DNA from: a virus
Reading direction: 5' to 3' (one strand)
Virus record (IMG/VR): IMGVR_UViG_3300027850_000169
Location: 1 to 64,000 of that record
DNA: 64,000 nucleotides
Part shown: piece after piece, positions 8,212 through 50,474 of the stretch
How positions within the stretch are numbered: position 1 is the stretch's first letter
Layout of the letters: the number at the start of each line of letters is the position of its first letter
Translations under genes and position numbers: made by a program
The notes under the pieces: model-generated
Seen by the model: only the letters and a program-made list of their open reading frames with translations
Databases searched by the model: none
Told to the model about the DNA's origin: nothing

Positions 8212-10833
8212 TTAAGTCACCTCTAAAACTAACCAATTACCTAAACTCAATTCTAGCCAATCTTTGGCAGAAGTTTCTAACCACGGTTTGAGCTCCGCAA
8301 ACGCCAAAACAGGTTCTTTCGCTACAACTGTTGTGATTCTCGGTTGCCCAATGATAGCACCAGTTACAGGTACAGCCGCGCCACCTTCAGTCACCGAAAG
8401 CTGAATCTGCTGTTTACCTTCAACGACTTGTACTGCTGACACCCAATAGCGACTAGGCTCAACACCGGGGATAATTCCACCAGTCGAAGCAACTTCAACT
8501 CTGTCGCCAACTACGAACACAACGGCTTTATCAACAATATTAGCATTACTTGCAAGCCAATTTCCTTGTGCGCTGCTAATCAAAGAGTTTGCCGTTCCAC
8601 CAATCCACCACAAGTCACCCAGAATCAAGTTAGCGTCAGGTTCGCAAGAAAAGTTTAAACCTGTAAGCAAGTAGGTTATTGCGTTCTCATCTGGCTCAAC
8701 CACCTGCACTGTCAGCACCGGACGGTATAAGTTGGACAGCCACCAGTCGCTAAGGGCGATTGTCAACTCATAAGCCTTACTCTTTCCTTGCCTGTAAAAA
8801 TACAGAATTGCTGCGATTTGCTTGAGAATTGCTTCAGTCGGAACCTTGCCAATACTTGCAAACTCTTTGGGCGGTGTTTGACCCGAACATTCTAGGTCGA
8901 AGTTCCAATGTTTTTTAATCTTTTTCTCTTCATCTTCCCAATCATCCAAGCCTTCGCCATCTGTTCCAGCGGCTGAATATGCGGGTAAGTATTCAGTTGC
9001 CGGAGCATTGGCAAGTCCAGAGCGACTGAGTTCTATTTTGTCGCCATCTTTCTCAGTCATTAGCGACATTCGCGTTTGATGTTTGACTTGAAAAGTGTTG
9101 ATATTCCGAGTGCTGTAGCTTACTGTACTAGAAACCTCAACATCTCCCACACGAGTGTAAGTAGGAATAGCTGTAACTTCGGTAATATTCACTGAAACTT
9201 TATCCTTCCACAATTTTTCGTCCAGCGCTTCAATCTCAGCGGAGAATCTAGCTTGATAAGTTGTTTTAGCTGTAACACGGTGCATCTCATTTGAGCCCCA
9301 ACGCATCCACTGTTCAGTAGTTTGTCCGCTAGGTGCAAGTGTTCCGATAAACGGCCAATAATTAGTCAGGATTTTAGAAATATATTCTTCAGTTACTGAG
9401 GTTGTAGCGGTTTGCACTCCATTAGAATTGTAGGTATAATTTGTCCGAGTTTTGCTGCTTAGGATTTGAGTAGTATTTAACAGCCAGTTATCAGCAGGGA
9501 AAGTCTGTCCACCAACGCCCGTAACACTTGAAGGCATTGTAAAGTTTACGTCGGCATAAGCTCCAAAGAAGCCAGCAAAGACTTTGCAGACAGGCTCGTT
9601 GATGACTTCTTCTTCATAATCTAGTCTGCCATTATTACTGGGAATCTGGCTGAAATATTGAGTTTTGATACTTCTGTAACTTTCTACAAAGGTGCTGCGA
9701 TTAGTTTTAGCGCCGGGAACTGCTAGCCCGCGCCGCTCTACTTTTGTTGTTGTAACAGTTTTTTGACCAGGCTCTATTTTTTCTACCGTTGTTGTCGTTG
9801 ATAGCAGCACTTCCGTTGTGGGACTGCCGTTAATATTGATGATTGTCTCAGGCCCAAAATCTTGCGTTATCGTAGTCTTACTTTTAGTACCATCGGGGTT
9901 AATAACTTCATCAATGTTTGCAATCTTTTTGTCAATACTTCCCGATACAACTAACTCTTTAATTGCGTCTAGTCCGCTGTCCAAAGGTGCGTATTCAATT
10001 TCATCTTTGCCAATTACAACTACCAGCGCGGTCGGATTGTTTGTAATATTAATCTTAGTAATCCGGATGCCGTCTTTGTCTGCCCAAAGGTAGCTAGGGG
10101 GAGAAGCCTTAAAGCACAAATCTCCGGCTTGTTGAATCAGTGAACCGCTAAAGTTGATAGGGCCCCTAATTTTTCCAGTAACACTACCGTAAATCTTAGT
10201 TGCTCCAGCCCTACCCAGCAAAAAGGTAACAACTTTTTGAATGTCGTAAAACTTTGATTTCTGAAACTCTCGAAATATCTCAGGTAATGTCAAATCGCCT
10301 TTTGGTACGACAATGGGCGGAGGCGGAGAACCTGAACTACTGGATGACGTAAACGATACACCTGGTGAGGAGTACGAAATTACGATTACAGACGTTGACT
10401 CTGTGTAGCCGTCTTGCTGTTCCTGCTGCGTAGAAGGCGTTTCTTTAGGAATCTTATTGTCTTCCCTGAAATCGTCAATTGACCGATTTTTCAGCAGCGA
10501 CAGCAGGCAGCCAGTTTGAATTGTCAACTTACAATCGGCAAAGTTGTAGAACGACCGAATCAAGTATTGAGTACCGCGCGGGTGTAGCTTGTAGGTTCCG
10601 TTGCCATTCAATATTTGAATTTCTAACTTTTTCCCCCAGCACCACCAACGATTCAACCTGTCGTTGAGTTCTTGCGGGTTTAAGTGATGGTCGTGGATTT
10701 CAACCGTCCCCGTAGCGTAAATGAGGCCGCTGGTGTCCAACTCGTTCTCGTCGCACACGAATCGAGCGAAGCCGGGAAACTCTAATCCGGCAACGAGTAA
10801 TTTGTTAGGTCTAGCGGCTACATTAACTGTCAT
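8212..10833 (-). CDS. Putative tail tip/hub protein
   Basis: 873 aa, Thr/Ser/Val-rich, heads the distal tail operon. Confidence 0.6.
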   Translation of the reverse strand: MTVNVAARPNKLLVAGLEFPGFARFVCDENELDTSGLIYATGTVEIHDHHLNPQELNDRLNRWWCWGKKLEIQILNGNGTYKLHPRGTQYLIRSFYNFADCKLTIQTGCLLSLLKNRSIDDFREDNKIPKETPSTQQEQQDGYTESTSVIVISYSSPGVSFTSSSSSGSPPPPIVVPKGDLTLPEIFREFQKSKFYDIQKVVTFLLGRAGATKIYGSVTGKIRGPINFSGSLIQQAGDLCFKASPPSYLWADKDGIRITKINITNNPTALVVVIGKDEIEYAPLDSGLDAIKELVVSGSIDKKIANIDEVINPDGTKSKTTITQDFGPETIININGSPTTEVLLSTTTTVEKIEPGQKTVTTTKVERRGLAVPGAKTNRSTFVESYRSIKTQYFSQIPSNNGRLDYEEEVINEPVCKVFAGFFGAYADVNFTMPSSVTGVGGQTFPADNWLLNTTQILSSKTRTNYTYNSNGVQTATTSVTEEYISKILTNYWPFIGTLAPSGQTTEQWMRWGSNEMHRVTAKTTYQARFSAEIEALDEKLWKDKVSVNITEVTAIPTYTRVGDVEVSSTVSYSTRNINTFQVKHQTRMSLMTEKDGDKIELSRSGLANAPATEYLPAYSAAGTDGEGLDDWEDEEKKIKKHWNFDLECSGQTPPKEFASIGKVPTEAILKQIAAILYFYRQGKSKAYELTIALSDWWLSNLYRPVLTVQVVEPDENAITYLLTGLNFSCEPDANLILGDLWWIGGTANSLISSAQGNWLASNANIVDKAVVFVVGDRVEVASTGGIIPGVEPSRYWVSAVQVVEGKQQIQLSVTEGGAAVPVTGAIIGQPRITTVVAKEPVLAFAELKPWLETSAKDWLELSLGNWLVLEVT

Positions 10834-11606: not shown

Positions 11607-12426
11607 TAGATACGACGCTCTGAAAAGATTACATTATTTGTTCAGTGACAAGAGGTGGATATTTGCTAAAACTATGCCGCAAAACCCGCATGAGTACACA
11701 TTGAGAAAGCACTGGAAAAACGAAGATGATTTCGTTGAAGCGGTTCAACTGATTCGAGATTATGGATATGTTATCAAGTTTCAAGGAAGAAAATATACTC
11801 AGTTTAACGTTCTAGGACATTTCTATTGGTCTATGGGTGCGCCGCTTCCCGTGACAATACTAATCAATCGAGCTTGTATTGATAAAGACGCAAAAGCTCC
11901 CTATGATGATATTTCTAATTCTTATGACGATTGGTTTTTAAAGCCAGAATACGAACGAGAGAACGTCAATCTTACAAAACTGCTAAAACCTTATATTGGC
12001 GGTAAACTTTTAGATGTTGGCTGCGGCACTGGGCTATTGCTTGATTTGTTAAACGTTTCTTTTGACTTGTATACAGGCGTTGACCCCAGCAGGATGATGC
12101 TAGACAAATTTAAAAATAAACATCCATGCCACAAAATCATTCAGTCTAAATATGAAGACTTTCCCTATGAAGGATTTGATTCAATTGTTTCGCTATACGG
12201 GTCTTTCAACTATTGTGAGCCGTCATCCGCAATTCAGGTAATTAATCAGTTGTCGCCAGGGGGTAAATATTTTTTAATGCTGTTTAAAGAAGATTATAAT
12301 CCCGTAACTCATAAATTAGCTAATTGTTCAATCCCTTACTATAAGCTAAGTAATTACAGCTTTCCAGTAGGAAGTGTTTTTGCCGAATTTACTAACTATA
12401 TCGTGGTAACGGGAGTCAAAGAATAA
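11593..12426 (+). CDS. Class I SAM-dependent methyltransferase with an extra ~95-aa N-terminal domain
   Basis: LLDVGCGTG, GVDPSRMML, LSPGGK; N-domain WIFAKTMPQNPHEY. Confidence 0.85.
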   Translation: MSTDNRYDALKRLHYLFSDKRWIFAKTMPQNPHEYTLRKHWKNEDDFVEAVQLIRDYGYVIKFQGRKYTQFNVLGHFYWSMGAPLPVTILINRACIDKDAKAPYDDISNSYDDWFLKPEYERENVNLTKLLKPYIGGKLLDVGCGTGLLLDLLNVSFDLYTGVDPSRMMLDKFKNKHPCHKIIQSKYEDFPYEGFDSIVSLYGSFNYCEPSSAIQVINQLSPGGKYFLMLFKEDYNPVTHKLANCSIPYYKLSNYSFPVGSVFAEFTNYIVVTGVKE

Positions 12427-13562
12427 TGCCTACCTATTACGGCAATAAGACCGTTTTTGAGATGGGCTTAGAGCGCATTGAATATTTGTTTGATGAGTTT
12501 GAAAATATTGCAGTTAATTTCTCAGGGGGGAAAGATTCAACAGTTACATTGAACTTAGCTTTAATGGTAGCGGAAAAAAAAGGAAGATTACCACTAAAAG
12601 TATTATTTATTGACCAAGAGGCTGAATGGGATTGCACTATTGATTACATGAAATCGGTAATGTACGACACTAGGATTGAGCCATACTGGTTCCAAATTCC
12701 CTTTAGAATTTTTAACGCTACTTGCAGCGAGGACCCCTGGCTAAATGCTTGGGACATCAACCCTGAAATTACATGGATTAGGGAAAAAGACCCTATTGCT
12801 ATTCACGAAAGCCCTGCAAAAACTGATAGATTTGAAAAGTTGTTTGATGATTTAGGGAACTGGATATTTAAAGGGAAGTCTTATGCCTATCTTTCTGGAG
12901 TCAGGTGTGAAGAATCACCCGCAAGGCGGGCGGGCTTGACGACCTTTGCGACCTATAAATGGATTACTTGGGGAAAAGTAGAGAATAAGAAGCGCAATCA
13001 ATTCGTTTTCTATCCGTTATACGACTGGTCTTATAAAGATATCTGGAAATCCATTCATGATAATAAATGGGAATATTGTGTTTTATATGATTATATGTAT
13101 CAGTACGGTATCTCACCTATAAAAATGAGATTGTCAAACGTCACCCATGAGACAGCCGTTGACAATTTATTCTTTCTTCAGGAAATTGAAGGGGATTTGT
13201 GGACAAGGTTAACACAAAGATTAAGGGGAATTAATACGGCTGGCATTCTAAAAGCTGACTGGAAATGTCCTAAAGAATTACCGTTTATGTTTGAAGATTG
13301 GCATGAGTATCGAGACTATTTATTAGAAAATTTAATAACAAATCAGAGTGTTAAAAAAATAATGCTCAAACAGGTAGAATCGGATAAAAGGCAATACATC
13401 CCAGAGATTCAAGATAAAGTCTGCAAGTATCATATTGATATGATTTTGAAAAATGATTATCATGGAACAAAAGCAACGACATTCGCAGCTTCTCATCTTA
13501 AAGAAAGAACAAATACAAACAGAGACCGTGAAAAAAGAGATAGAGAATTATTTAAAAAATAG
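12426..13562 (+). CDS. ibrA: PAPS-reductase-family protein, IbrA-like
   Basis: FSGGKDS PP-loop, FIDQEAE, GVRCEES, YPLYDW, KMRLS, EIEGDLW. Confidence 0.8.
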   Translation: MPTYYGNKTVFEMGLERIEYLFDEFENIAVNFSGGKDSTVTLNLALMVAEKKGRLPLKVLFIDQEAEWDCTIDYMKSVMYDTRIEPYWFQIPFRIFNATCSEDPWLNAWDINPEITWIREKDPIAIHESPAKTDRFEKLFDDLGNWIFKGKSYAYLSGVRCEESPARRAGLTTFATYKWITWGKVENKKRNQFVFYPLYDWSYKDIWKSIHDNKWEYCVLYDYMYQYGISPIKMRLSNVTHETAVDNLFFLQEIEGDLWTRLTQRLRGINTAGILKADWKCPKELPFMFEDWHEYRDYLLENLITNQSVKKIMLKQVESDKRQYIPEIQDKVCKYHIDMILKNDYHGTKATTFAASHLKERTNTNRDREKRDRELFKK

Positions 13563-14193
13563 CGCTAATCCTATTGCCGCTATTGAGGAAATCAAAGCAT
13601 TGCTGCATGAACTGTCACCACTAAAAAGTCAGCCCATTAATTTAGTTCAATGGGTTTCAATTGAAATGGTAGAGGCTAACGACTACAATCCAAACTCCGT
13701 AGCAACGATTGAAATGAAGCTGCTGTATACCTCTATCAGCCACGATGGGTACACATCGCCTATAGTTACCATTTGGGATGAGTCAATTCAAAAGTATGTC
13801 ATCGTTGATGGGTTTCACCGCTATTCAACGATGAGGCAAAACCAAGATATCTACGACAGAAATATGGGCTTGATTCCTATCGTTGTTATTGACAAGGAAA
13901 TTAACGACAGGATGGCAAGTACCGTCCGTCATAATCGCGCCAGGGGGAAGCACAGCATATCTGGAATGAGTTCAATGGTCTTTTCTATGTTAGAGAACGG
14001 ATGGAAAGATTCAGAGATTTGTAACGAGCTAGGGATGGAGCCGGAAGAGCTTTTAAGACTAAAACATCTAACGGGTTTTTCCAAGCTGTTTGAAAACGTT
14101 GAATACAAGAAAGCATGGGAGACTAAGGCTCAAATTAAGTACAGAGTCAACGCCGAGAGAGAGGGGATAAGAACGCTTAAAACGAACAATTGA
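13453..14193 (+). CDS. ibrB: ParB-like protein, IbrB-like (true start may be GTG at 13528)
   Basis: ANDYNPNSVA..EMKLLY.SI..DGYT.PIV, VDGFHRY, ASTVRHNRARGKH. Confidence 0.85.
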   Translation: MIIMEQKQRHSQLLILKKEQIQTETVKKEIENYLKNSANPIAAIEEIKALLHELSPLKSQPINLVQWVSIEMVEANDYNPNSVATIEMKLLYTSISHDGYTSPIVTIWDESIQKYVIVDGFHRYSTMRQNQDIYDRNMGLIPIVVIDKEINDRMASTVRHNRARGKHSISGMSSMVFSMLENGWKDSEICNELGMEPEELLRLKHLTGFSKLFENVEYKKAWETKAQIKYRVNAEREGIRTLKTNN

Positions 14194-14195
14194 CG

Positions 14196-15674
14196 TCACC
14201 ACAGAATCGGCTCATCATCCTCAACTGGTTTCTCGACCACTACCTCAACAACTGGTTTAGGCTTCGTAAATGGCATTTCTTTCGCAAAAGCCGCCGCATC
14301 AGCCATATTTGCCGCTAACATCTGCTCTCGCTTGGTTCGTCCTCTTGGAAGTTTGGCTTGAACCATCTCAAAAGCCTTATTTCTGGCGGCTCGATTTTCA
14401 TCTGTTAGCGCATAAGGGTTTGTCGGGTCTGTTGCTGCTGTCTCTGGCATTTCAACTGTCTCACTTGCGGCAATTTGTGGTATTGAATTCTCGGTACAGT
14501 TGGTTGCGTAAGTTGGTAAATTATTCAAGAGTGCTTGCTCCTTTGGGACTCCTAACTCTACTTGTCGTTTTGCACCCTCTAAACAGCGTTCTAGCTGCAA
14601 TTTTACCGCATTGGCGACCGCTGCAACCACTGGCAATCGGCGTAACTGTCCAGCGGCACTCTTGGCCGCCTCTGTCGCCGTTGTACCTACCTTGCCGATA
14701 CAGTCCTGCGATATAGCCTCCACAACGACTTGCTCAGGTACACCGCGCAATCTGAAGCCGGGGGGAACCATGCGACCGCCTAACTCCTCACCCGCGTTAA
14801 ACTCGTCCCACAGCATCGCTACGCTGGCCTCTGGCGTTCTGGACTTAGATTCGCGCATCACCCAGTTAGCATAGCCTTCAGGAGAGTCGATATCTACCCG
14901 CTGGTAGCAGTACGCCAGCAATGCCTCGAAAAACTCCTTTCTCGCAACCGGACTCGACGGCGCGGAACATTTATCAACTTGCAAGGTTATCGGTTCTGTT
15001 GTTGAGTCTACTTCTTTGGCAACTTGGAAATTGACATTGCTTTGGTTGCTTTGGTTGCTTTCTTCATTTTCTTCAATCTCTAAATTTACTAAAACAGTCG
15101 CGCTCGCTCTTTCTGTGAGAGGTTCTTTTTGAATAACTTTCTTTGAAAATGTATCTTGATTTGATTTGCAGTCAGTCGTCAAATCGATTTGCTGAGACTC
15201 GACATATCGATTTGACGGATTTTGACAAATGGGTAGTGATGCGGGTTCCAGCAGTTCAGCTAGCTTTTCTGTGTCAATGGTGTAATACTTGCAGGCATCC
15301 CATTTTCCGGCTCGAAGCTTCTGACTGATGACTAAGCCGAGTTCTTCAAGTTTGGCGAATCCAGACTTGATTTGATAAAAACTCAAGAATGGAAAATTGC
15401 CGCGCCAGTCAATAAGCTTGCCGTGTTCTTGCACTCGCTCTTTCTTTTTAGGGTCTGTGCACTTGATAGGGTTGCGAATCCACTTTTGCCCATCTACGAC
15501 TGTTCCAGCCATTGAAGGACTCTCAACACACCACTGAAGCTTGTTGAAGATGGTGGCTCCAATTACGCCGATGATAATAGCTAAATCTTCATCAAAGTAT
15601 CCTAGTCTTGATGTGTCCAATCGATTCACCTTGTGTAGGGTTGTGGTGAATACAACGGAAGAAAATCTTGGCAA
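14196..15674 (-). CDS. Putative phage replication initiator (N-terminal winged helix)
   Basis: DGQKWIRN...W...FPFLS..QIK..F.KLEELGLVIS...WDACKYYTID resembles phage replisome-organiser N-termini. Confidence 0.6.
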   Translation of the reverse strand: MPRFSSVVFTTTLHKVNRLDTSRLGYFDEDLAIIIGVIGATIFNKLQWCVESPSMAGTVVDGQKWIRNPIKCTDPKKKERVQEHGKLIDWRGNFPFLSFYQIKSGFAKLEELGLVISQKLRAGKWDACKYYTIDTEKLAELLEPASLPICQNPSNRYVESQQIDLTTDCKSNQDTFSKKVIQKEPLTERASATVLVNLEIEENEESNQSNQSNVNFQVAKEVDSTTEPITLQVDKCSAPSSPVARKEFFEALLAYCYQRVDIDSPEGYANWVMRESKSRTPEASVAMLWDEFNAGEELGGRMVPPGFRLRGVPEQVVVEAISQDCIGKVGTTATEAAKSAAGQLRRLPVVAAVANAVKLQLERCLEGAKRQVELGVPKEQALLNNLPTYATNCTENSIPQIAASETVEMPETAATDPTNPYALTDENRAARNKAFEMVQAKLPRGRTKREQMLAANMADAAAFAKEMPFTKPKPVVEVVVEKPVEDDEPILW

Positions 15675-15857: not shown

Positions 15858-15992
15858 CTACACCGACGCTACCAACACCTTGCGAACACAACCGCTAAGC
15901 ACTATACATAGCAACACTTTCGATACCGTTTAAAAATACTTTCCCAAAACGCTTGACAAGCTACCGAGTAGCCTATATAGTGATAACAGATG
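15858..15992 (+). promoter_or_regulatory. Repeated strong sigma70-type promoter cassette, copy 1
   Basis: AAAAATACTTT..TTGACA(15953)-17-TATAGT; near-identical to 16776-16910. Confidence 0.85.
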
Positions 15993-16009
15993 AAAAAACT
16001 ACTAAAACT

Positions 16010-16775: not shown

Positions 16776-16910
16776 CTACACCGACGCTACCAACACCTTG
16801 CGAACACAACCGCTAAGCGCTATACATAGCAACACTTTCGATACCGTTTAAAAAATACTTTCCCAAAGCGCTTGACAAATCCTAGTGAGTAGCCTATAGT
16901 GATAACAGAT
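16776..16910 (+). promoter_or_regulatory. Repeated promoter cassette, copy 2
   Basis: TTGACA(16872)-17-TATAGT. Confidence 0.85.
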
Positions 16911-16939
16911 AGAAAAAACCACTCCAAGCGAGCCTAAAA

Positions 16940-17359
16940 ATGAAAATTGCAAAAGCTAAAAAGTACGCCCAAATTAAAGACAAAGATTTTCCAGCACTTC
17001 TCTTGTTAATAAAACGAGCAAGAAAAGTAATTCCGGGAGCTTGGGGGAAAGTTGAGCGTATTGACGCAGATTGGGGAATAGATGGACTTCTAGATATTCA
17101 TGTGGCGCTTTTGCAGGATGCTCCAACTAAAGGATTGAGAAATCTTACCCCAGGACGTTACCACATATATTTCACTTGGAAGCCTTATGAAGAAGGGCGT
17201 TATGGGTCGAGAGGTTGGAACGTGACCGATTACGAAAAAGGAGAATGGTGGCTACCATTTGAACCATCTGACGCTTATCTCAAGCTTCGTCAACCCCCGT
17301 GGGATGTTCTAAATAGTCGGAAGTGGGACGGTACAACATTGTTTACAAAAACAAGCTAG
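16940..17359 (+). CDS. Hypothetical early protein
   Basis: 139-aa ORF directly after the promoter. Confidence 0.65.
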   Translation: MKIAKAKKYAQIKDKDFPALLLLIKRARKVIPGAWGKVERIDADWGIDGLLDIHVALLQDAPTKGLRNLTPGRYHIYFTWKPYEEGRYGSRGWNVTDYEKGEWWLPFEPSDAYLKLRQPPWDVLNSRKWDGTTLFTKTS

Positions 17360-17689: not shown

Positions 17690-17784
17690 ATATTAATGCC
17701 TAGCAGGTTGCTCCGATGAGGGTTCGACTCCCTCTTATGCTTTTTCCTATCTAATTCTTTCCCCGGTAGGGATTCTATAGACTC

Positions 17785-18135
17785 ATGCCCAAAATCAATT
17801 TTTCTCATCCTAATTCAGAGCTAGATGCTTTAGGGTTTGAAGACCATCAACTCCATGTTAGATTGGAAGACCCGGAGCTTTCAGATAAGCTCATTGCCTA
17901 CTTGTCCCCTCTCGTGGGAAACGGGACTGAGCTTGTGACGATTGTGTCTCCAGGGCTAGCTCATCTAGCGGTGCTAGTGCTAACTACTATCCACGGGCTA
18001 ACGGGGAGCTTCCCGTTAGTTGTTTCAATGGTAAGAGGAGAAGACGGCGGCTTTTCGCCACTACCTGCCGTTAACTTACAAAAATACCGGAATTCTTGCG
18101 CCCGGAAATCTAGAGAAGGGCTCAAAGTTCTCTAG
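17785..18135 (+). CDS. csx15: Csx15-like protein (cyclic-oligoadenylate ring nuclease or sponge homologue)
   Basis: Ordered motifs NFSHP, PGLA, IHG..G.FP, NLQ..R...AR match the Csx15 pattern as I recall it; 116 aa. Confidence 0.6.
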   Translation: MPKINFSHPNSELDALGFEDHQLHVRLEDPELSDKLIAYLSPLVGNGTELVTIVSPGLAHLAVLVLTTIHGLTGSFPLVVSMVRGEDGGFSPLPAVNLQKYRNSCARKSREGLKVL

Positions 18136-18223: not shown

Positions 18224-18421
18224 ATGGATTTCTTTAAAATCATAAGCAGTAAGGTTAAACTGCCACTTTCATCACAGGAAACCGAATCTTACGTTGAAGG
18301 GAAAGAGATTGACGGCAAACTATTTGTTCGGGGTCGAAAAATAGACTGCGAATACTTGCAAATTTCCCAAGATGAAGCTGTTGAGGCTCTCGATAAATGG
18401 ATTATCGAAGAGTATGGTTAG
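18224..18421 (+). CDS. Hypothetical protein
   Basis: Strong RBS AAGGAG before ATG. Confidence 0.6.
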   Translation: MDFFKIISSKVKLPLSSQETESYVEGKEIDGKLFVRGRKIDCEYLQISQDEAVEALDKWIIEEYG

Positions 18422-18528
18422 AAATTAAACTAAAGCGTTTTTTCAAAAATAGCAGTCATAAATTGATTGCTATTTTTTAATATTATTTTACCCAAGCCAC
18501 GATTACACCCTCAGTCCCAGAGTCCAGA

Positions 18529-18622
18529 CATAGCAACACTTTCGACACCGTTTAAAAATACTTTTCTAAAACGCTTGACAAGTCTTAGCGAGTAGCCTAT
18601 AGTGATAACAGATAGAAAAAAC
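18529..18622 (+). promoter_or_regulatory. Repeated promoter cassette, copy 3
   Basis: TTGACA(18575)-17-TATAGT. Confidence 0.85.
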
Positions 18623-19299: not shown

Positions 19300-19506
19300 T
19301 CGAGCCAATAAATCCACAGGAGTCGCGCGTTGTGAGGATGCGCGACTAACCGTCCCTGAGTATCCTACCCGTTTGGGAGCGGCCGCAGACTGAACGCTCT
19401 AGCCCGCCTCAAACGTCGCAAAATCTACCACCAGCGCTGCAACGTTGCCACGCCAGCAACCCCAACCGCTAGACTCTGTACACAGTCATCCTTTCACCGT
19501 ATCTAC

Positions 19507-19555
19507 AAAATACTTTCCCAAAACGCTTGACAATCTCCGCACCGTGTATTATATT
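19507..19555 (+). promoter_or_regulatory. Repeated promoter cassette, copy 4
   Basis: AAAATACTTTCCCAAAACGC-TTGACA(19527)-17-TATATT. Confidence 0.8.
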
Positions 19556-19964: not shown

Positions 19965-20077
19965 CAAACCGCTAAGATAAGTCAAGTAGCGTCGCGAAAT
20001 CGCTTAACAAAGAAGCCCCTCTCTAGGGGCTTCTAGCTGCAACTTGTCACGGAAACAACTCATCTAAGTATAGCAGT

Positions 20078-20287
20078 ATGCCAACGCCAGAACCACAAAG
20101 AAAATACAATCAATCAGAGCGAGGTCGCAAAGTTCGCGCTGAGTGGAACCGAGAAAACAGGCAATACCTCGAACAAAAAAGAGAAAGTCGAGAAGGGGAG
20201 TGCGTTATTTGCGGGCAGATAAAATGGTTGGTTCGCAAGCATCCACCAACTTGTAGGAAATGCAATAAAAGTATTGACAGGCGATAA
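20078..20287 (+). CDS. Small Zn-ribbon protein
   Basis: CVIC...CRKC. Confidence 0.5.
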   Translation: MPTPEPQRKYNQSERGRKVRAEWNRENRQYLEQKRESREGECVICGQIKWLVRKHPPTCRKCNKSIDRR

Positions 20288-20376
20288 AAAAGTTTGCTAC
20301 AATTCCTGCGTTGCCCATACCGGGGGGATAATAGTAGTCTACACACGTTGAACGGCGTGCTAAGATTCTTAGCAGT

Positions 20377-20868
20377 TCACACGGCTAGTTTTTCTAATTC
20401 GCTCATTACAAAACTCAATTCCATCAACTCTCCTATCGCCTTCTCTTCAATAGTAGACAGGTCAATCCCGACTAAAAACTTAGCAAAATATTCGACATAT
20501 CCGCTCTGACTATTGATGAATGGGTCTGCTAGTAGACGGGTAGTAACAGGCTCTGTCAAACTGAGAAATACATCACTCAATATAATTTTATATCCGTCAA
20601 AAGGTGGAACAAATATTTTACTGTCTGCGCGTCTGACTACCGACCAAAACTGATTCCTCTCTTCCCAAGAAGCCAATACAGTCACATTCCACAGGTGTTT
20701 TGCTTCATGCGGCGTTCGCCTTATGAATGCGTTGCCACTAAAAGCGTAATCTATCTTAGCCCCGTGCAATAACTTTCTAGAGTAGCTTGGCAAGTTTCTT
20801 AGAGTTACCGCAAGAGTGTCGATTTCAAGTCTTAGGTATGGATAATCTTCTATTGTTGGATATGGCAT
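20377..20868 (-). CDS. Putative distal tail protein
   Basis: Start overlaps the tape-measure stop; size and position fit. Confidence 0.55.
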   Translation of the reverse strand: MPYPTIEDYPYLRLEIDTLAVTLRNLPSYSRKLLHGAKIDYAFSGNAFIRRTPHEAKHLWNVTVLASWEERNQFWSVVRRADSKIFVPPFDGYKIILSDVFLSLTEPVTTRLLADPFINSQSGYVEYFAKFLVGIDLSTIEEKAIGELMELSFVMSELEKLAV

Positions 20869-23800
20869 TATTTTCTCCTACCTAGGGCGCTTAAGATTTC
20901 AGCACATTCGGCTGCTGGATTCTGGGAAACGACAGTAAGGTTTCCCACACCGCCTTTACCCATTCCAGTTAACTTGTTCGAGATAGTTTCGAGTAAGTTG
21001 TAAATATTGCCTGCTGTTTCTTCTAGGGACATTGTAATTTGTTTGGCCTCGGTATCAATCTTTGGAGCAATTGGGGGCTGATTAGATGGAGCTACATCAC
21101 CTAATCTTTTTGCTAATATCTCATAAATCCTAGTAACGGTAGCCTCCAATCCTTTAGGTTTGTTTGCCTCTCCTTCAGCCTTGACTTGATTCCCTCTTGC
21201 CTCGTCTAATTGTTGTTGCAAACGTTCAAGTTCAGTTATAGGAGTCTGTCCACCTTCAAATGTTTTCAAAGCTCCATTAACGGGTTTCCCAAACTGCTCC
21301 ATTGCTGCTTTCGCTTCGCGCAAACCTCCCAAGGTGGATTCCTCGGCTGCTCCAATTGCAGCATTGACTTTACCTTCCTCGGTATTGAAATTAATACCTT
21401 TTCTTTTTGCGAAATCACGAGCCGCTAATTCATTTTCGGCTCTAGCTTCGGCATTCCATTTCTTAGTATAATCCTCCATCGCCTTCTGAGCGGCTACAAG
21501 GGATTTGTTCGCTGTTTCAACATCGGGAACCGCTGAAACGGTGTCAACAGGAACGTCAAAAATTGGCAGTGACTTAGCGATTTCTAAAGGTTTGCCAATT
21601 TCAGCACTGATGCCTTTGAGCCAGTCGGGAGTCATTTCAGCAACAGGTGCAGCCTTGGGGGTTTCAAACCCTAAACCTTTTAACCCTTCAGTTTGTACGG
21701 CTCCCAAAGCTTGAATAATCGCAGTTTGAGCGGTGACAGTTAAGGTTTGCTGCTGTTTCTTGTCCTCTACCTCTTTGGCAATTGTAACTTGATTAAGAGC
21801 GGGTTTTGCGTTGCCAAACGCATCAAAAACATTTGACGACTGTACAGAGCTTGTCGAACTAAGACTGCCAGCAGAGTCTTTTTTGGCTTGCGCTGCTTTG
21901 CGAACTTCCTCAAGTTGTTGTTGCTGTGTTAGGCGTTCTCGTCCCCCCTGTTGTTCGATGTTTAGCCGCTGCTGCTCAAGTTGGTTGATTTCACTTTGAG
22001 CTTTTTCAGATTCTCCAACTTGAACGAGTGCTTGTTCTCGAAAACCTTGAACCTGTTTTAACGCTGCAATTTCGCGAGGCGCTGCACCCGTTGCCTTAGC
22101 TTTCTCAACCGCCGCCTGAGACTCAAACAAGGCAATCTGAGCTTGAATTTTTTGGCGCTGTAGTTCTATTGCCTGCTGCTTCTGACTAATAGCTAGTGAC
22201 TGCTGTTGAGCTTGTTGTTGAACCGCAAGTGATGCTACTTGCTGGTCATAAATCTGTTTTTTGATTCCCTCAGCCTTGGTGGCGTCGCCGGACGCATCTG
22301 CAAGAGCAAGCTGGAATTCCAACCGTTGCTTGTCAAGGTCGGATACCGCAGAAGTAAGACCACCCGCTGCTGCCTGTTTGCGCGACTGTTGGTCTAGTCC
22401 AAACTTCTGACTGTCAAGAGTGTTTAGCTCGTTCTCAAGACTTTGTTTTTGTGCGGCTAATTGAATTTCAATTGCTAGGGTGGCTGCTTTGCGCTTGGCT
22501 TCTAACTGCTTCTCAATCAGCCCAAGGTTTGCACCCGCTAATTCTTGCTGGATTTGCCCTTCTCTGTCTGCGGCTTCTTTGGCAGTAATCACGCCCTGAG
22601 CACGTAACTGACGGGTTGCAACTAACTTGTTTTGCAGGATGATAATCTCGCGCCCTGCTGTTTTGAGTTGGACGGCTTCAATCTGTTTAGCGGCATCTTC
22701 TGCTGATAATCCCCCAGCAAGTTCGGCTTTACGGATTGCCAAGGTATCGGTTGTAGTCGTTAGCTTACTGATACGCTCTTGAGCTTTGAGAGCTTCTTCA
22801 ATTTTTTCAACAATCTTTTGCTTGGCTTCTTTCTGTTTTTCAATAGCGCGAGTTTGTTCTAGGTTTTCACGAGTTGCCTTCTGCTCAATTGCCAGTTTCT
22901 TGTCTTCAAGACTATTAATTTCAGATTGTGCAGAACGGACTTTACTGATTTGTCCGAGTGCCTGATTCCGTAGTCCTAGAGCCTGACTGAGGGCTGCAAT
23001 CTCTCCACTAGATGCACCAGTTGCTTTAGCTTTGGCTAACGATGCTTCGGCTTCCAGAATGCCAATTTTTGCGGTAATTTCCTGGCGCTGTAACTCGATG
23101 GATTGCTGCTGACGAGCTAGTCCAACATTTGCTTTTTGTTGTTCTTGTGACTGAGCAAGGGACTTTAACTGCTGTTGATAAATCGCTTCTTTCAGTTGCT
23201 CTTGCTGAACAGTATTACTAGCGAGGTCTGCCAATTGTAACTGAAAACCTAATCGTTGCTGGTCTAGTTTGGATTGAGCCTCTAGTACCCCAGTTATTGC
23301 ACCTTGTTTTTTCGCAACTAATTCTAAGCCTTGACCCTTGACCCCCAAATCGGCTGCTTGCTTCTCAAGAGGTAGCTTCTGCTCAGACAGCCGTGCTTCA
23401 ATTGCGTCGGTTGCCGCCTTTTTCTTGGCTGCGAGTTCTTTTTCGATTAGGTTGAGATTTGCTTGTGTTAAATCTTGCTGAATCTGTGCTTCGCGGTCTG
23501 CGGATTCCTTAACAGAGATTAAGCCCTGTGCTCGCATTTGGCGCGTGGTTGTCAACTTACTTTCTAAAATTCCGCGTTCGCGTTCAGCAGTTTTAACGCC
23601 AATTGCTTCAATTTGCTTGGCGGCTTCTTGTGCTGAAATACTGCCAGAAAGTTCAGCCTTGCGAACGCCAAGGGTTTCATTTGTGGTTGCCAGTTTACTG
23701 GTACGCTCTTGAACTTTGGCGGCTTGTTCAATCTGCTCTAGAGCTTTCTGCCTAGCTTCTTTTTGTTTCTCAATCGCTCGACCTTGCTCTGAGTTTTCCT

Positions 23801-26800
23801 TGGTCGTCCGCTGCTCAATAGACAGCTTTTTATCTTCAAGTGCATTGACTTGAGCTTGGCTTGCTCTGCCTTTGCCAATTTGAGCGGCTGCCTGACCTCG
23901 CAATCCTAGCGCTTGCTTTAATCCAGCAACTTCCTCTGCTGAGGCTCCTGTCGCTACAGCTTTAGCTAAAGCTGCCTGAGCTTCAATGATTGCAATCTTG
24001 GCTGAAATCTCTTGACGTTGTAGCTCGATTTCCTGCTGTTTGCGTGCGAGTCCTACGCTAGCCCGTTGCTGTGCCTGAGAGGCTACAAGATGACTAACCT
24101 GTTTCTGATAAATTGCCTCTTTCAACTCCTCCTGTTTTGCGGTGTTTCCAGCGAGGTCTGCTAATTGTAACTGAAAACCTAATCGTTGCTGGTCTAGTTT
24201 GGATTGAGCATCGTTAACCCCTCCAGCCACCGAAGCTTGTTTAGCAGACAAATCTAAGTCTTGAGATTTAACTCCTAAATCTGCCGCTTGCTGTTCTAAA
24301 GGTAACTTCTGCTCAGATAGTCGCGCTTCAATCGCATCAACAGCAGCTTTTTTCTTAGCCGCTGCACGAGTTTCGTTAGCTTCTTGTTGAGCTTTTAGCA
24401 GTTCCTCTTGAGCTTTTTTCTGAGTTTCTTTGAGCTTCTCCAAATCTTCAGGTTTCTCTTTCTTTGCATCGCCTAAACTTTTAACAGACTTATTGGCAAA
24501 GTTTGCTTTGTCTGTTGCCGCTTGTAACTCGATTGCCGCCCGCCTTTTAGCGGCTTCTTTTTCATTGATTTTACCAGCAGTCAAATCACTTTCAATCGCA
24601 AATTTTTGCTTTAGGACTTTTCCCTCAAGCGCTGTTGATTGTTTCTTAATTGCCTCTGTAACTGAGTCAACTGTAGGTTTTGCTTTTTCCTGCTGTACAG
24701 CTTTTTTTTTGTCAAGTTCAATTGATTCTTGAATTGACTTTTTCTGCCGATTAACTTGGTCAATCTGCATTTTAATTTGACCAATTGCAGCGTTTCGTGC
24801 ATTGTTTTGAGCTTCGGCTTCGTTTCCGCCTATGCCAAATAATCCTGCCTTGGCTTCGGGGACGGCGTTGGCTTCTGCTAATTGTTTATCTAGCAGGGGC
24901 AAAGTATTATCTGCGCGTTTTAAAGCTTTTTTCTCGGCTTCTTTCTCAACCGCAGTCAGCCCTCTCTTTTCTGTTGTGGCTTTGGCACGGGTGCTTTGAA
25001 CATTGCCTAAGTCTTGAGCGCTACCCACTCCAGCCTTGCCCACAATGTCAGTGTTGGCTCGTAGGTCATCAAGCGCAACGTTAAGCTCCTTCATTTCCTG
25101 AGTTTTTTGGACAATAGCAATCAATCCAATGGCTGCACCCAACGCTGCAAGAGGTGCTAATGCCAAGGCGGCGCTAGTTGCTATACCACCAAGACCAACA
25201 GCAGCAAAGTAAGAGGATGTCCCAAATAAGTTAGTTACAATGGTTGCGCGAAGGTAGTTCGCCGTCATTGCTACTAACCGAAGTTGGGTAACTACCATCG
25301 CCGCATTATTTGCAACCATAACAACTGTGACTTGGGTAGTAGCTAAAGCGTAAACCGTTTTAGCAGCAGCGGCAGCTTTTGTAACGACAATTCCGGCAGT
25401 AGTTGCAGCGGCTCCGGCGATTTCTTGTGCAGTTTTGATAATCTGCAATTTCTCAAGAATGGTATAGCCAACAATCAACCCAGATGTGGCCGTAACAAGG
25501 GCGATTGTTCCACCAATTAATGTTTGAACTGGTGCGGGTGCGTTCAAAAAAACACCTAAAAGCGAATTGGCGGCTGTTGCTGCTGCGGCTAGTGAGGGAG
25601 CAAGAGATTTTCCTAATTGTAATTTTAGAGCGTCTATACTTCCACTTAACTCTTCCGTAGCATTCCCCAAACCTTGTTGTAACTGTGCTTGTTGTTCAAT
25701 AGCTGAGCCTGCGCCAGTATCTCCTTTTTGAGCGTTTTTAATTTTTGTATAAGTTTTGTCTATTTTGTCTTGAGTTTGACCTAGTAAACCAAGAAAGGCT
25801 GGCCCGCCTTCATCTCCAAAGATTATTCTTGTCAAACTGGCCTTTTCGTCCGGTTGCATTTTATTAAGGGCGGAACGAAACTCTGGAACTAATTCAACCA
25901 GATTTCGCATTTCTCCGGTTGTAGAATCTCGGATATCTACCCCTAGTTTTTTCATGGCTTCAGACGCTTCTTTTGTAGAAGGTGCTGAAAGTCTGCTAAT
26001 AACTGTTTTTACCGCTGTGGCGGCAGTTGAGGCACTAAATCCGGCATCTCTAACTAAACTAAAAGTTGTTGCTAAGGTTTCTAAGTCTTGATTGTTTGCT
26101 TTTGCAACTGCACCAGCTTGAGACAATATTTGCAGAAAGTCAGGCGCATCAATCGCACCAGCCGCCGCCGTGGCTGAAACTACGTTTGCAATTTCGTTGG
26201 CACTTCTGCCGTAAATAGTGGTAGCAGCACCAACAACTGAAGCAGATACTTTAACACTAGCGCCAGAGGCTTCTGCCATTGCGACTAAGCCGCGTAAGTT
26301 TTTAGCGGTATCTTTAGCGCTGAAACCCAGCTTTGCCAACTCAACAGCAGCCTCTGCCGACTCGTTGCTTGTTTTACTTGTCGCGATTCCAATAGCAATC
26401 GCTTCTCTTTCAAGTGCTGCTACTTCTTCGGCACTCGCACCTGCTGCCGCGCGGAATGAGTTGAGGGAACTTTCAAAGCCCTTGTAAGTATTAATTCCTT
26501 CTTCTGCGAACCCTTTTATAGCCCCAAAGGTAAATTTTGCTGCATCCGCCAACGCCTGGAAACCTACAATTGCTGGAGCTGGGTTGACGGGTGGGATTTC
26601 TATCGGGGGAACTACTATTGGAGGAATGGTAATACCCGCCATAGTATTGTTCAATGCTTGAACCGCAAGGGTAAGCTCTCTTAACGCTGTTACAGCTTGA
26701 CTATTATCCAGTCCAGCACGCAGGCTTATTCCTTGCGAACCAACAGAAGAACGAAGCTGCGAGATATCTTGGACTACTCTAGATGTGTCCAGTGCTACTT

Positions 26801-26870
26801 GAAAAGAAACTGACCCTACTGATGTAACCACAAGATAGTAATTATAAATAACTATCTTTAAAGTCAACAA
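20868..26870 (-). CDS. Tail tape measure protein (TP901-family domain)
   Basis: ~2000 aa, Ala/Gln/Lys coiled coil; ELAKLGFS, AATAVKTVISRLSAP, MKKLGVDIRD, IFGDEG. Confidence 0.93.
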   Translation of the reverse strand: MLTLKIVIYNYYLVVTSVGSVSFQVALDTSRVVQDISQLRSSVGSQGISLRAGLDNSQAVTALRELTLAVQALNNTMAGITIPPIVVPPIEIPPVNPAPAIVGFQALADAAKFTFGAIKGFAEEGINTYKGFESSLNSFRAAAGASAEEVAALEREAIAIGIATSKTSNESAEAAVELAKLGFSAKDTAKNLRGLVAMAEASGASVKVSASVVGAATTIYGRSANEIANVVSATAAAGAIDAPDFLQILSQAGAVAKANNQDLETLATTFSLVRDAGFSASTAATAVKTVISRLSAPSTKEASEAMKKLGVDIRDSTTGEMRNLVELVPEFRSALNKMQPDEKASLTRIIFGDEGGPAFLGLLGQTQDKIDKTYTKIKNAQKGDTGAGSAIEQQAQLQQGLGNATEELSGSIDALKLQLGKSLAPSLAAAATAANSLLGVFLNAPAPVQTLIGGTIALVTATSGLIVGYTILEKLQIIKTAQEIAGAAATTAGIVVTKAAAAAKTVYALATTQVTVVMVANNAAMVVTQLRLVAMTANYLRATIVTNLFGTSSYFAAVGLGGIATSAALALAPLAALGAAIGLIAIVQKTQEMKELNVALDDLRANTDIVGKAGVGSAQDLGNVQSTRAKATTEKRGLTAVEKEAEKKALKRADNTLPLLDKQLAEANAVPEAKAGLFGIGGNEAEAQNNARNAAIGQIKMQIDQVNRQKKSIQESIELDKKKAVQQEKAKPTVDSVTEAIKKQSTALEGKVLKQKFAIESDLTAGKINEKEAAKRRAAIELQAATDKANFANKSVKSLGDAKKEKPEDLEKLKETQKKAQEELLKAQQEANETRAAAKKKAAVDAIEARLSEQKLPLEQQAADLGVKSQDLDLSAKQASVAGGVNDAQSKLDQQRLGFQLQLADLAGNTAKQEELKEAIYQKQVSHLVASQAQQRASVGLARKQQEIELQRQEISAKIAIIEAQAALAKAVATGASAEEVAGLKQALGLRGQAAAQIGKGRASQAQVNALEDKKLSIEQRTTKENSEQGRAIEKQKEARQKALEQIEQAAKVQERTSKLATTNETLGVRKAELSGSISAQEAAKQIEAIGVKTAERERGILESKLTTTRQMRAQGLISVKESADREAQIQQDLTQANLNLIEKELAAKKKAATDAIEARLSEQKLPLEKQAADLGVKGQGLELVAKKQGAITGVLEAQSKLDQQRLGFQLQLADLASNTVQQEQLKEAIYQQQLKSLAQSQEQQKANVGLARQQQSIELQRQEITAKIGILEAEASLAKAKATGASSGEIAALSQALGLRNQALGQISKVRSAQSEINSLEDKKLAIEQKATRENLEQTRAIEKQKEAKQKIVEKIEEALKAQERISKLTTTTDTLAIRKAELAGGLSAEDAAKQIEAVQLKTAGREIIILQNKLVATRQLRAQGVITAKEAADREGQIQQELAGANLGLIEKQLEAKRKAATLAIEIQLAAQKQSLENELNTLDSQKFGLDQQSRKQAAAGGLTSAVSDLDKQRLEFQLALADASGDATKAEGIKKQIYDQQVASLAVQQQAQQQSLAISQKQQAIELQRQKIQAQIALFESQAAVEKAKATGAAPREIAALKQVQGFREQALVQVGESEKAQSEINQLEQQRLNIEQQGGRERLTQQQQLEEVRKAAQAKKDSAGSLSSTSSVQSSNVFDAFGNAKPALNQVTIAKEVEDKKQQQTLTVTAQTAIIQALGAVQTEGLKGLGFETPKAAPVAEMTPDWLKGISAEIGKPLEIAKSLPIFDVPVDTVSAVPDVETANKSLVAAQKAMEDYTKKWNAEARAENELAARDFAKRKGINFNTEEGKVNAAIGAAEESTLGGLREAKAAMEQFGKPVNGALKTFEGGQTPITELERLQQQLDEARGNQVKAEGEANKPKGLEATVTRIYEILAKRLGDVAPSNQPPIAPKIDTEAKQITMSLEETAGNIYNLLETISNKLTGMGKGGVGNLTVVSQNPAAECAEILSALGRRK
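21950..24380 (-). repeat. About three tandem 930-nt (310-aa) internal repeats in the tape measure (ends approximate)
   Basis: Near-identical blocks at 24151 and 23221; diverged copy at 22291 (LDQQRLGFQLQLAD / LDKQRLEFQLALAD). Confidence 0.85.
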
Positions 26871-27016
26871 AATAAGGCAATTTTATTGTTGCAAACTGCA
26901 CAGTAATTGCTGGGTGACTTGTTTTTTTTCTGCATACAAGAAACCCCAAGATTTCTCTCAGGGATGTGTCTCTGCAATATTGTTTACAGTATTGATTGTA
27001 TCGTCTTTCTCATGTG

Positions 27017-27448
27017 TCAATCGTTAATAGTTTGTTCCGAGAATTTGAACCCAGGATGCTCTGAGGGCGCACCCCAAGACGAGCCTATTACTTTAGCTTG
27101 ATAGCCAGCAACAAATATTTCAAGCGTTCCAGTAACACAGGTTGGTTCGTCTAAAATTGAATAGCTCCAGCCACCTTGTCCGTCATAGTCGCATTGCTCT
27201 TGTTCTACCAACTCTCTGAGTTCTTTGTCGGTAGGGGTCTCCCAATCTTTCAATTCTGGAAATCTAGTTAGAAGTTCAGCGCGTTTTTTGGGGTCTTGCA
27301 AATCTTTGACAAGTTCGTCGTAACTGGCTCGCAATTGGTTGAAAAGACAAGTCTCGATTAAGTCTCGAACTTCTCTAGCCAAAACGGGAAGCAGCTTTGG
27401 TTTGACACTATCTTTGGCAATGTAAACTCGACAGATTTTCTTAGCCAT
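27017..27448 (-). CDS. Hypothetical protein
   Basis: 143-aa ORF at the end of the minus-strand operon. Confidence 0.55.
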   Translation of the reverse strand: MAKKICRVYIAKDSVKPKLLPVLAREVRDLIETCLFNQLRASYDELVKDLQDPKKRAELLTRFPELKDWETPTDKELRELVEQEQCDYDGQGGWSYSILDEPTCVTGTLEIFVAGYQAKVIGSSWGAPSEHPGFKFSEQTIND

Positions 27449-27552
27449 GATTTTAGTGGGTAGTTTTTACTAAATTGCTGAATTGACTCGCTAGGTTGGG
27501 ATAGAAGCAGCCATTTTTGACGGTATATAAAAGGCCGCTAATCCGTTTTAAT

Positions 27553-28476
27553 TCAATTACACCAGTTGGAGTAAGCCTGAACTGGGATACCAATCTTCTC
27601 CGGCAACTCAGAAGGAAATTCAAAAGGGTCGGGGGATGGAGACAGCAATTGCTGCTTAATCTGGGCAACTTGTTTTGCTTGGTTTGCTTGCTGTGATTGA
27701 TTCTGAGAGCTGAAACCCGTTTTGATATGCAGGTTTCGCCACTCCTGATAGTTGGGCTGACGCGGAGATTGACCACCGTAACGCTTAATTTTCTCCACTG
27801 CGTTTGCGTAGTCAACACTCAAAGTCTCCAATTGGAGCAAGGCTTGTTCGGCTGCTTCCATGCAACGCCTTTCTTGAGTGGCGTACTCTTGTTTTAGAGC
27901 CATCCATTCTTCAGTTATTTGAGCCTCCCTTGCTTTGATAAACTCTACAGCTTTTAAAGCAGTTGCCGTTAATAGCTTAGGGTCTTTTCGCGCAATTCCT
28001 GCCTGTTTTGACTGAGGGTAGAAATTGACCCCTAGGGTTTTCCCGGTTGGGTCATAGTAGTCGAAACTTCCAAGTATTGTCGGACTTTCAGCTTGGTACA
28101 CCGCTACCGGAACCTTAAAGGCATCCGCCCAATTTCCTTGAGCCGGAGTGACAAAATCCAGTCTAGGGGCTTTCACTTTGGCTTCCCGTGCTGTTACACA
28201 ACGATTACAACATTCATCGAAATACCCCTCTTCCGGTTCAATTTCGTTGCTAATCCAAAGTGCTTTAACTTTATCCCAGTCAAACGAGTCGGTGTCCAAA
28301 ATGAGCATACTTCGACAGAATCTACCGCCCGTATTAGGTTCTTCTGTTACCGTGCCATCTGTTTTGAAAAGTCCTCCCCGCTCTCGGTATACATCACCGG
28401 AGTGGACAATTTTTATCATCTTCTCGATTTCGTCTCTTGAGATTTCTAATTTCCCAAGATTTTTTTTATTGAACAT
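27553..28476 (-). CDS. Hypothetical protein with C-terminal coiled coil
   Basis: 307-aa ORF, 5 nt after the CAP gene. Confidence 0.65.
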   Translation of the reverse strand: MFNKKNLGKLEISRDEIEKMIKIVHSGDVYRERGGLFKTDGTVTEEPNTGGRFCRSMLILDTDSFDWDKVKALWISNEIEPEEGYFDECCNRCVTAREAKVKAPRLDFVTPAQGNWADAFKVPVAVYQAESPTILGSFDYYDPTGKTLGVNFYPQSKQAGIARKDPKLLTATALKAVEFIKAREAQITEEWMALKQEYATQERRCMEAAEQALLQLETLSVDYANAVEKIKRYGGQSPRQPNYQEWRNLHIKTGFSSQNQSQQANQAKQVAQIKQQLLSPSPDPFEFPSELPEKIGIPVQAYSNWCN

Positions 28477-28481
28477 TGCTG

Positions 28482-29003
28482 TTACGCTCCAAATATTTGA
28501 GTTGCAAAATAATTGATTCTTCCATCATCACCCTGGAGTCGTGAGACGGAAATACCAATTCCGGTATGCGTGAAATAAGGTTGAATCATTACTGTGTGAT
28601 GTCCTGGACTTTTTATCCAGCCAGGGACAATCAATGTGCGTTGCTCGGAAAATTGATAATCGTAACACTCTCCACCCGCTAAGTTTTCTCCGGCTCTCGC
28701 AAAAGATTTCATAACTTGCGGGCCCCTTTCCTCATTCCAACCATCATGAGTTAGGCGACTGCTTTTATTCATCCACCTACTATGATTAGTAGCAATCTCG
28801 TTAAGCCTTGAATCCATTGTCAAAGGATTGAGTTTTCTACTCTTTCTGTAGTCATTGACCTCAATCAAGATTTGATTTTCAAGGCTCGAACCTGAGTCTA
28901 TCCTTTGTCTGCTAGCGGTTTCAGTAGGTACTGATTCAGTGGTATTACCTTTTTTAACGATTGGCGGTGTCCAGACATCGACAATCCTTTGAAATAAATC
29001 CAT
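28482..29003 (-). CDS. CAP/SCP domain protein
   Basis: EVNDYRKS..LNPL, HSRWM, GENLA, WIKSPGH, TGIG, ATQIF. Confidence 0.9.
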   Translation of the reverse strand: MDLFQRIVDVWTPPIVKKGNTTESVPTETASRQRIDSGSSLENQILIEVNDYRKSRKLNPLTMDSRLNEIATNHSRWMNKSSRLTHDGWNEERGPQVMKSFARAGENLAGGECYDYQFSEQRTLIVPGWIKSPGHHTVMIQPYFTHTGIGISVSRLQGDDGRINYFATQIFGA

Positions 29004-29014
29004 TTGCTCTCCTG

Positions 29015-29380
29015 CTATTTAGAATTTGGCTTGACATCTTGCTTCAAGCACTCTTCTAGGTGCTTTGTTGTTAGCTCTGCGTTTAACCCAGTGAGAACAC
29101 CTGTCTTTTGCAGGAAGTCGTTATTTTCCACTTGCGTCATTACGGCTTTTTTCCGTACTAACTTCTGTCTTTTGAGCGCTAACGAGCTTGCCAAAACTCC
29201 TATGGCAATAGCAAGCAACAGACTTGCCGTTTTAAGATTTGATGGCTTACCACCAAGGAATAGACTTCCTAACCACGCACCACCAGATATCGATATTGCT
29301 ACGGTTGTTTTGGTGGTTAGAGCGTTGAAATCTTTTTCGTTAAAAAGATTTCCCAAAAAATGTTCAGTTGTGTTTGACAT
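29015..29380 (-). CDS. Small membrane protein
   Basis: Two hydrophobic segments; ATG at 29380 overlaps the upstream stop. Confidence 0.55.
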   Translation of the reverse strand: MSNTTEHFLGNLFNEKDFNALTTKTTVAISISGGAWLGSLFLGGKPSNLKTASLLLAIAIGVLASSLALKRQKLVRKKAVMTQVENNDFLQKTGVLTGLNAELTTKHLEECLKQDVKPNSK

Positions 29381-29634
29381 TAGGTTGCAATCCCTACGAT
29401 AAGTCCACAAGTGATACAAAACCAGAATCCGATAGAGTAGGCGATAACTTTATTGGCCGGAAAGCTCCACAACTCTGAGAACAGTGTAGGCATCAAGGTT
29501 GCCAAAAGATTTGAACAGATAACTAACCCTAGAATGATAATCCCTATATTGGCGGCTAGTAACTGAGATTTGATTGCATAAATTAGAAAGTTGGTCGAAA
29601 CTAAAACGGTCAATCCTAATGCGAGTGGAAACAT
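29380..29634 (-). CDS. Small multi-TM membrane protein
   Basis: MFPLALGLTVL..., three hydrophobic stretches; ATG right after the upstream stop. Confidence 0.55.
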   Translation of the reverse strand: MFPLALGLTVLVSTNFLIYAIKSQLLAANIGIIILGLVICSNLLATLMPTLFSELWSFPANKVIAYSIGFWFCITCGLIVGIAT

Positions 29635-29635
29635 T

Positions 29636-30396: not shown

Positions 30397-30474
30397 TTGT
30401 TAGTTGTGTTAATTGACCGTTGCCGATATCCGGCAGACCTGCACACTCCGACTCCGAGGTGGTGTGCAAGAAGT

Positions 30475-33229: not shown

Positions 33230-33234
33230 TCCGA

Positions 33235-34510: not shown

Positions 34511-34682
34511 TGTAAAAGTTCAAGAGAAAGAATGCGGTCATTTGCTAGAATACTATTAGAAACAATCCGAGAAAACAGTCGAATAATCTTGGTAAACATT
34601 GGTTGATTTTCCGTGGTTAAACATTGATTGATTAGTATTAGGAGAATCAACCGAAACAGCAACTGATTCTCCCACCGATTGA

Positions 34683-48571: not shown

Positions 48572-48579
48572 GAAAGATT

Positions 48580-50415: not shown

Positions 50416-50474
50416 AATTGAAAATCTTTTGCAAAGGGCTTTACAAACCCAGTATATCATGTTATCTTAGTAAT

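Follow-up and report, generated by a model that had tools for sequence, protein, structure and literature searches.

An uncultured, tailed freshwater phage, whose host is probably a cyanobacterium, encodes a 116-aa protein that by sequence is a true member of the Csx15 family. On analogy with characterised Csx15 proteins, this protein rather probably acts against type III CRISPR by quenching cA4, either through cleavage or at least through sequestration. The gene, csx15, lies in a 64-kb window (the whole stretch of DNA analysed, 64,000 nucleotides), which is the first part of a 91,696-bp IMG/VR virus record with a CheckV completeness of 100%, a GC content of 42.7% and no tRNA genes found. In the model we favour, the phage would make this compact, stand-alone Csx15 early in infection; its dimers would bind cA4 (perhaps also cA3 to cA6) between head-to-tail stacked dimers, at a composite site to which one dimer would contribute H8 and its neighbour R107/R110 (along with H70), and which would cleave or at least hold the ring; and the removal of cA4 would keep host CARF/SAVED effectors (e.g. 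Csx1) silent, an anti-type III CRISPR activity of the vCsx15/“AcrIII-3” type. In this model we infer the ligand, oligomerisation, catalysis, expression timing and a type III-bearing host. The role fits the location in a phage, where no Cas10 was found, as well as the purifying selection on the gene and its place in a variable early/accessory region; the points against it are the slow kinetics of Csx15, two motif deviations and a hairpin between promoter and gene.

Would a Csx15 be of any use to a virus? Two laboratories differ. Chi et al. did not see Csx15 in phages and describe it as a slow nuclease or a sponge, of doubtful anti-CRISPR value given how much cOA type III systems produce (10.64898/2026.01.21.700848). 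An October 2026 preprint, by contrast, names viral Csx15 AcrIII-3, as a proposed viral ring nuclease, on the basis of Lokiarchaeota virus Skoll and more than 20 metagenomic viral sequences, and finds the viral copies “predominantly restricted to prophage regions” (Klimavicius et al., 10.64898/2026.10.26.761840). The locus described here is a test case between the two views, Csx15 as absent from phages and probably useless as an anti-CRISPR versus Csx15 as the viral AcrIII-3.

The first-pass annotation had called the product Csx15-like from a set of motifs, and each of these is present in the ORF at 17785-18135 (plus strand): NFSHP at residues 5-9, PGLA at 56-59, HGLTGSFP at 70-77 and NLQKYR at 97-102. 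The family assignment stands as well, with a likeness well above chance: the protein scores 39.5 bits (E 5.5e-10) against the NCBIfam equivalog NF040560 (CAS_Csx15), above the curated cut-off of 35 bits, and matches the PADLOC Csx15 model at E 1.6e-6. On its own, the sequence aligns with the C-terminal half of NF040560 only (model positions 62-125). An exhaustive search of 1.8 billion representatives returned no more than 39 relatives at E ≤ 0.001, with lengths of 113-124 aa in almost every case; NF040560 is matched by 33 of the 34 that were aligned (best E 1.6e-25), and the N-terminal start, M-[IP]-K-[IL]-N-F-S-H, is kept across all close homologues. The profile of this 34-member alignment finds two solved Csx15 structures over their full length, 9tet (E 1.1e-12) and 9teu (E 1.4e-10), which residue offsets equate with PfCsx15 and CliCsx15, respectively (Chi et al., 10.64898/2026.01.21.700848), and also the Csx15 domain of CbCash, a Schlafen fusion. 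A Pfam scan gave no matching model and a PHROGs scan one match at chance level; a resemblance to “Pam3 gp32-like” phage clusters (ESM Atlas, 0.87) fell below the trust level of the tool, had no Pfam support and was dropped.

The residues needed for cleavage or for cA4-induced stacking have been mapped by mutagenesis in cellular Csx15 proteins: a head His (H8 in HaCsx15 and CsCsx15, H13 in CliCsx15, H11 in PfCsx15), a central His (H90 in CliCsx15, H82 in PfCsx15), an adenine-stacking aromatic (Y113 in CliCsx15) and a tail-face Arg triad (R118/R122/R125 in HaCsx15, R116/R120/R123 in PfCsx15), with H8 and R125 of HaCsx15 forming a composite active site between stacked dimers (10.64898/2026.01.21.700848; 10.64898/2026.10.26.761840). 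All of them are retained in the phage protein: in our alignments, H8 corresponds to Pf H11, Cli H13 and Ha H8; H70, within HGLTGSFP (H-G-x-x-G-x-F-P), to Pf H82 and Cli H90; F90 to Cli Y113; and R102/R107/R110 to Pf R116/R120/R123. These positions are invariant across the 17-member close clade, R107 is the sole invariant column of the wide alignment, and H8 and R110, the counterparts of the HaCsx15 catalytic pair H8/R125, are nearly invariant in the wider family. Two features deviate from the canon. The head motif reads NFS-HP, lacking the Gly of the canonical N-[FL]-S-G-H and keeping the His (elsewhere in the family, too, either the Ser or the Gly is lost while the His stays), and the Arg helix has the spacing R-x4-R-x2-R instead of R-x3-R-x2-R, with one residue inserted between the first two Arg. 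The geometry of the active site could therefore differ.

If the critical residues are in place, does the protein cut? The same His and Arg residues are present in PfCsx15, which nevertheless acts as a sponge, so the residues alone are no proof of turnover. The phage protein might likewise be a non-catalytic cA4 sponge, stacking on its ligand and sequestering it without cutting; its head motif and Arg spacing are unlike those of the active enzymes, and the only Csx15 structure matched in a single-sequence search of the PDB was that very sponge (9tet, “CRISPR-associated Csx15”, E 3.6e-6). We nonetheless consider a pure sponge unlikely: the H8/R110 pair is maintained throughout the close clade and almost throughout the wider family, and sequestration was judged a poor counter to type III output by the authors of the sponge study themselves (10.64898/2026.01.21.700848).

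The predicted structure (pLDDT 93) is a Rossmann-like α/β fold whose nearest relatives among solved structures are SAVED and CARF domains, in agreement with published work on Csx15. The structural kinship with Csx15 or CARF on which the first-pass annotation had staked its proposal is supported: the profile recovers 9tet and 9teu and the closest folds are of the SAVED/CARF type. Foldseek of the model against the PDB gave nothing at E ≤ 1e-3. The closest of all are the SAVED domains of CBASS, and HaCsx15 and CsCsx15 cleave not only cA3 to cA6 but also 3′3′3′-cAAG and 2′3′3′-cAAA, broad-spectrum viral homologues having been suggested as possible (10.64898/2026.10.26.761840). Could other cyclic oligonucleotides (CBASS trinucleotides, cA3/cA6) then be the main target, instead of or besides the cA4 of type III systems? 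We find this improbable: across genomes, the link of Csx15 to Cas10 is much stronger than that to CBASS cyclases (10.64898/2026.10.26.761840), and nothing within the 64-kb window points to CBASS.

Returning to the anti-type III reading, how would the phage deploy the protein? The gene is the third of a four-gene unit (g139, g89, then a hairpin, csx15 and g65), part of a plus-strand block of small genes that has the replication gene on one side and the end of the tail module on the other and is punctuated by four copies of a promoter module:

14196-15674, minus strand: replication initiator
15858-16000, 18528-18622 and 19456-19555, plus strand: the other copies of the promoter module
16776-16919, plus strand: promoter module heading the csx15 unit (-35 TTGACA at 16872, -10 TATAGT ending at 16900)
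16940-17359, plus strand: g139, which opens the unit, 139 aa, of no known family; a 95% identical copy occupies the same place in related loci L002/L003
17420-17689, plus strand: g89, 89 aa, no known fold match; a homologue lies directly upstream of csx15 throughout the close clade
17716-17747, plus strand: invariant non-coding block of 32 nt, a 5-bp hairpin (17718-17734) with a T-rich run after it
17785-18135, plus strand: csx15 homologue, 116 aa (H8, H70, F90, R102, R107, R110)
18224-18421, plus strand: g65, which closes the unit, 65 aa, of no known family
18445-18477, plus strand: 14-bp AT-rich hairpin and T-run, terminator-like, at which the unit ends immediately ahead of the following promoter module
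20377-35397: tape-measure gene (2000 aa) and tail genes
62056-63198: major head protein

Each module spans 100-145 bp, carries a near-consensus sigma-70-type promoter (AAAATACTTTCCCAAAACGCTTGACA-N17-TATAGT/TATATT) and heads one of the successive small-gene units; it recurs in sister phages and may double as a recombination site. The claim that csx15 sits among small genes behind strong promoters holds, with a qualification: the four modules, each TTGACA-17-TATAGT/TATATT, are there, but the nearest lies 885 bp upstream of the gene, with the terminator-like hairpin in between. In one metatranscriptome run, contigs cover the replication gene of a related phage and the gene corresponding to 20060-20304, and none falls on csx15. 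The gene was also said to be far from any cas operon. It does lie outside any cas locus, with its synteny kept in sister phages, and no Cas10 (Cmr2 or Csm1) was found across the whole 91.7-kb record; a CRISPR array with a Cas12u2-like gene is, however, about 29 kb away. No homologue of g65 was found in the related loci. The virus record has a ParB-like gene; at 12426-14193, a PAPS-reductase/DUF3440 gene and a ParB-like gene overlap as an IbrA/IbrB-like pair, and a second PAPS-reductase gene, DndC-like, lies at 53907-55523.

The csx15 gene is under purifying selection, with a dN/dS of 0.04-0.20 in every pair among nine loci, and it has also been exchanged. In DNA, its flanks share 94-97% identity with those in a sister phage (L011), whereas the segment 17716-18209 shares only 74.5% and has saturated synonymous sites; the allele has therefore been exchanged, not merely mutated. 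Mosaic exchange of this kind is typical of counter-defence loci. The left edge of the exchanged cassette coincides with the block 17716-17747, which does not vary among five loci despite coding flanks of just 49-72% identity. What is this block? Its hairpin (17718-17734) exactly matches the T-arm of a tRNA-Glu(UUC) gene carried by another phage contig (L025:5344-5419) and scores as terminator-like; the block could be a tRNA relic that bounds recombination, a terminator or a site of processing. That contig, a viral one of 57.8 kb, packs 28 tRNA genes into 5.9 kb (L025:1-5940). The hairpin is not itself recognisable as a tRNA gene or a known RNA (nothing from ARAGORN and Rfam), and the intergenic RNA upstream of csx15 has no extra stability relative to shuffled sequences (z = +1.0). 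An attP site is unlikely because no tyrosine or serine recombinase (integrase) was found in the virus record.

The gene on the other side of this block appears to be a steady companion. A g89 homologue lies directly upstream of csx15 in every close-clade locus, with tandem duplicates in three (L004:9470-9904, L010:294-719 and L014:1180-1605), and the family shares the core HF.I.EN...NPRPIV.QLSKD...GNI.G.EKQYLEF; the AF2 model of g89 (pLDDT 83) matches no fold in the PDB or BFVD, and neither Pfam nor PADLOC has a family for it. We tentatively suggest, while doubting it ourselves, that g89, the tRNA-like hairpin and csx15 make up a mobile two-gene counter-defence cassette, exchanged among freshwater cyanophages at a tRNA-derived boundary, with g89 as a new Csx15 partner; within such a cassette, g89 could be a second inhibitor, or an accelerator of filament turnover, through which a slow cellular ring nuclease becomes of use to a virus. 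Sister phage L011 has the N-terminal 18-20 residues of g89 (SGKAYYFATDEASKITE) at the start of two different genes (L011:8049-8102 and 9162-9284), and its g89 homologue appears frameshifted, which suggests either a shared leader module or assembly errors.

The same companionship can be read in another way. A quarter (25%) of Csx15-bearing RefSeq genomes are without type III CRISPR, so the family may have other roles, and a gene that travels with a conserved partner behind a tRNA-like boundary might have no counter-defence role at all, as a nucleotide-binding regulator of the phage programme or a passenger of a mobile cassette; this seems to us very doubtful for a gene that is under strong purifying selection, retains its ligand-site residues and recurs as a small stand-alone gene in unrelated phages, in a phage whose own CRISPR effector is a Cas12u2-like protein of type V. 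Signalling by cOA is not known from type V CRISPR.

That CRISPR locus (array and effector region, 47429-50460) also bears on the host. The array (47429-48574) has 17 repeats, the 3′ half of which, CCCTACTAGGGATTGAAAC (last 19 nt), equals that of the I-D repeat DR1b of Microcystis aeruginosa; the repeats also resemble the repeat family of an array in Nostoc phage N-1. The adjoining 626-aa protein matches Cas12u2 (type V-U2) at E 9.6e-117, and, since this effector is of type V, we rejected the idea that Csx15 works together with the CRISPR system of the phage itself; an 8-nt identity between the csx15 leader and the CRISPR repeat (TAGGGATT) is too short to interpret. An ordinary TnpB encoded at 40267-41439 is nearest to cyanobacterial clusters, and the phage DNA is present in several freshwater metagenomes. 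In M. aeruginosa, type III-B systems with Csx1 and CARF proteins are common. In the 91,696-bp record, GATC is almost absent, with 10 sites where base composition predicts 343, GGCC is depleted (65 versus 190 expected), and neither CGATCG nor the cyanobacterial HIP1 octamer occurs, which looks like strong avoidance of restriction sites.

Viral Csx15 is thus an already known kind of protein, to which this locus adds the anatomy of a cassette (promoter module, g89 and tRNA-like boundary) and a clear case of allele exchange. The closest parallel is vCsx15/AcrIII-3, likewise a stand-alone, virus-encoded Csx15 and a proposed ring nuclease known from metagenomes only; unlike that set, the present copy sits in a tailed freshwater phage without a detected integrase, and one related record has terminal repeats. 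The cellular, type III-associated CliCsx15, HaCsx15 and CsCsx15 belong to the same family by HMM and profile, share the key residues and are similar in single-domain size (116 aa in the phage versus 125 NCBIfam model positions and 139-146 residues in the solved chains), but they have the head NFSGH instead of NFSHP, one residue fewer between the first two Arg and, unlike the phage gene, Cas10 nearby. PfCsx15 (9tet), an orphan cA4 sponge, is chromosomal in Pseudomonas and a divergent outlier according to Klimavicius et al. (10.64898/2026.10.26.761840). The two other viral quenchers are of different families: AcrIII-1 (DUF1874) is a fast enzyme of unrelated fold, and AcrIII-2 (viral SAVED, 9r8s) consists of a duplicated domain of double size, each monomer of which has one active site. 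The cellular ring nucleases Crn1-4, Csx16 and Csx20 resemble Csx15 in removing cOA and in their Rossmann-like, CARF-type fold, but they show no sequence match to the phage protein and hold the ligand atop one dimer, as opposed to between stacked Csx15 dimers; the exception is Crn3/Csx3, which also stacks.

As an experimental object, the locus offers a short protein that looks catalytically complete, a complete-looking genome in which no integrase was found, many natural alleles under purifying selection and a defined transcription unit, and the immunity of its likely host group, Microcystis and other freshwater cyanobacteria, depends heavily on type III-B/Csx1. An active protein would add a third family to the viral ring nucleases and provide a tool for switching off cA4 signalling; an inactive one would favour another role for Csx15.

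Where did the gene come from? Capture from a host, as the first-pass annotation had proposed, would be one route; no cellular donor was found, and two scans of species-representative genomes with narrow patterns, which do not imply a virus-only clade, revealed no true cellular clade member. Searches of PLSDB plasmids and a tblastn of 50,697 deposited phage genomes likewise found no homologue. Three IMG/VR contigs carry close homologues (64-95% identity), as do several contigs from freshwater metagenomes. More distant Csx15 homologues occur in five further viral records (91-217 kb, GC 26-51%; terminal repeats in one), in none of which a match to the capsid gene of this phage or a Cas10 was found; the Csx15 neighbours in other viral contigs have no informative Pfam matches. 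Some distant relatives contain several Csx15-like stretches per chain, five in P0050 (955 aa) and two each in P0045 (319 aa) and P0056 (327 aa), an arrangement that recalls the duplicated-Csx15 origin proposed for SAVED domains.
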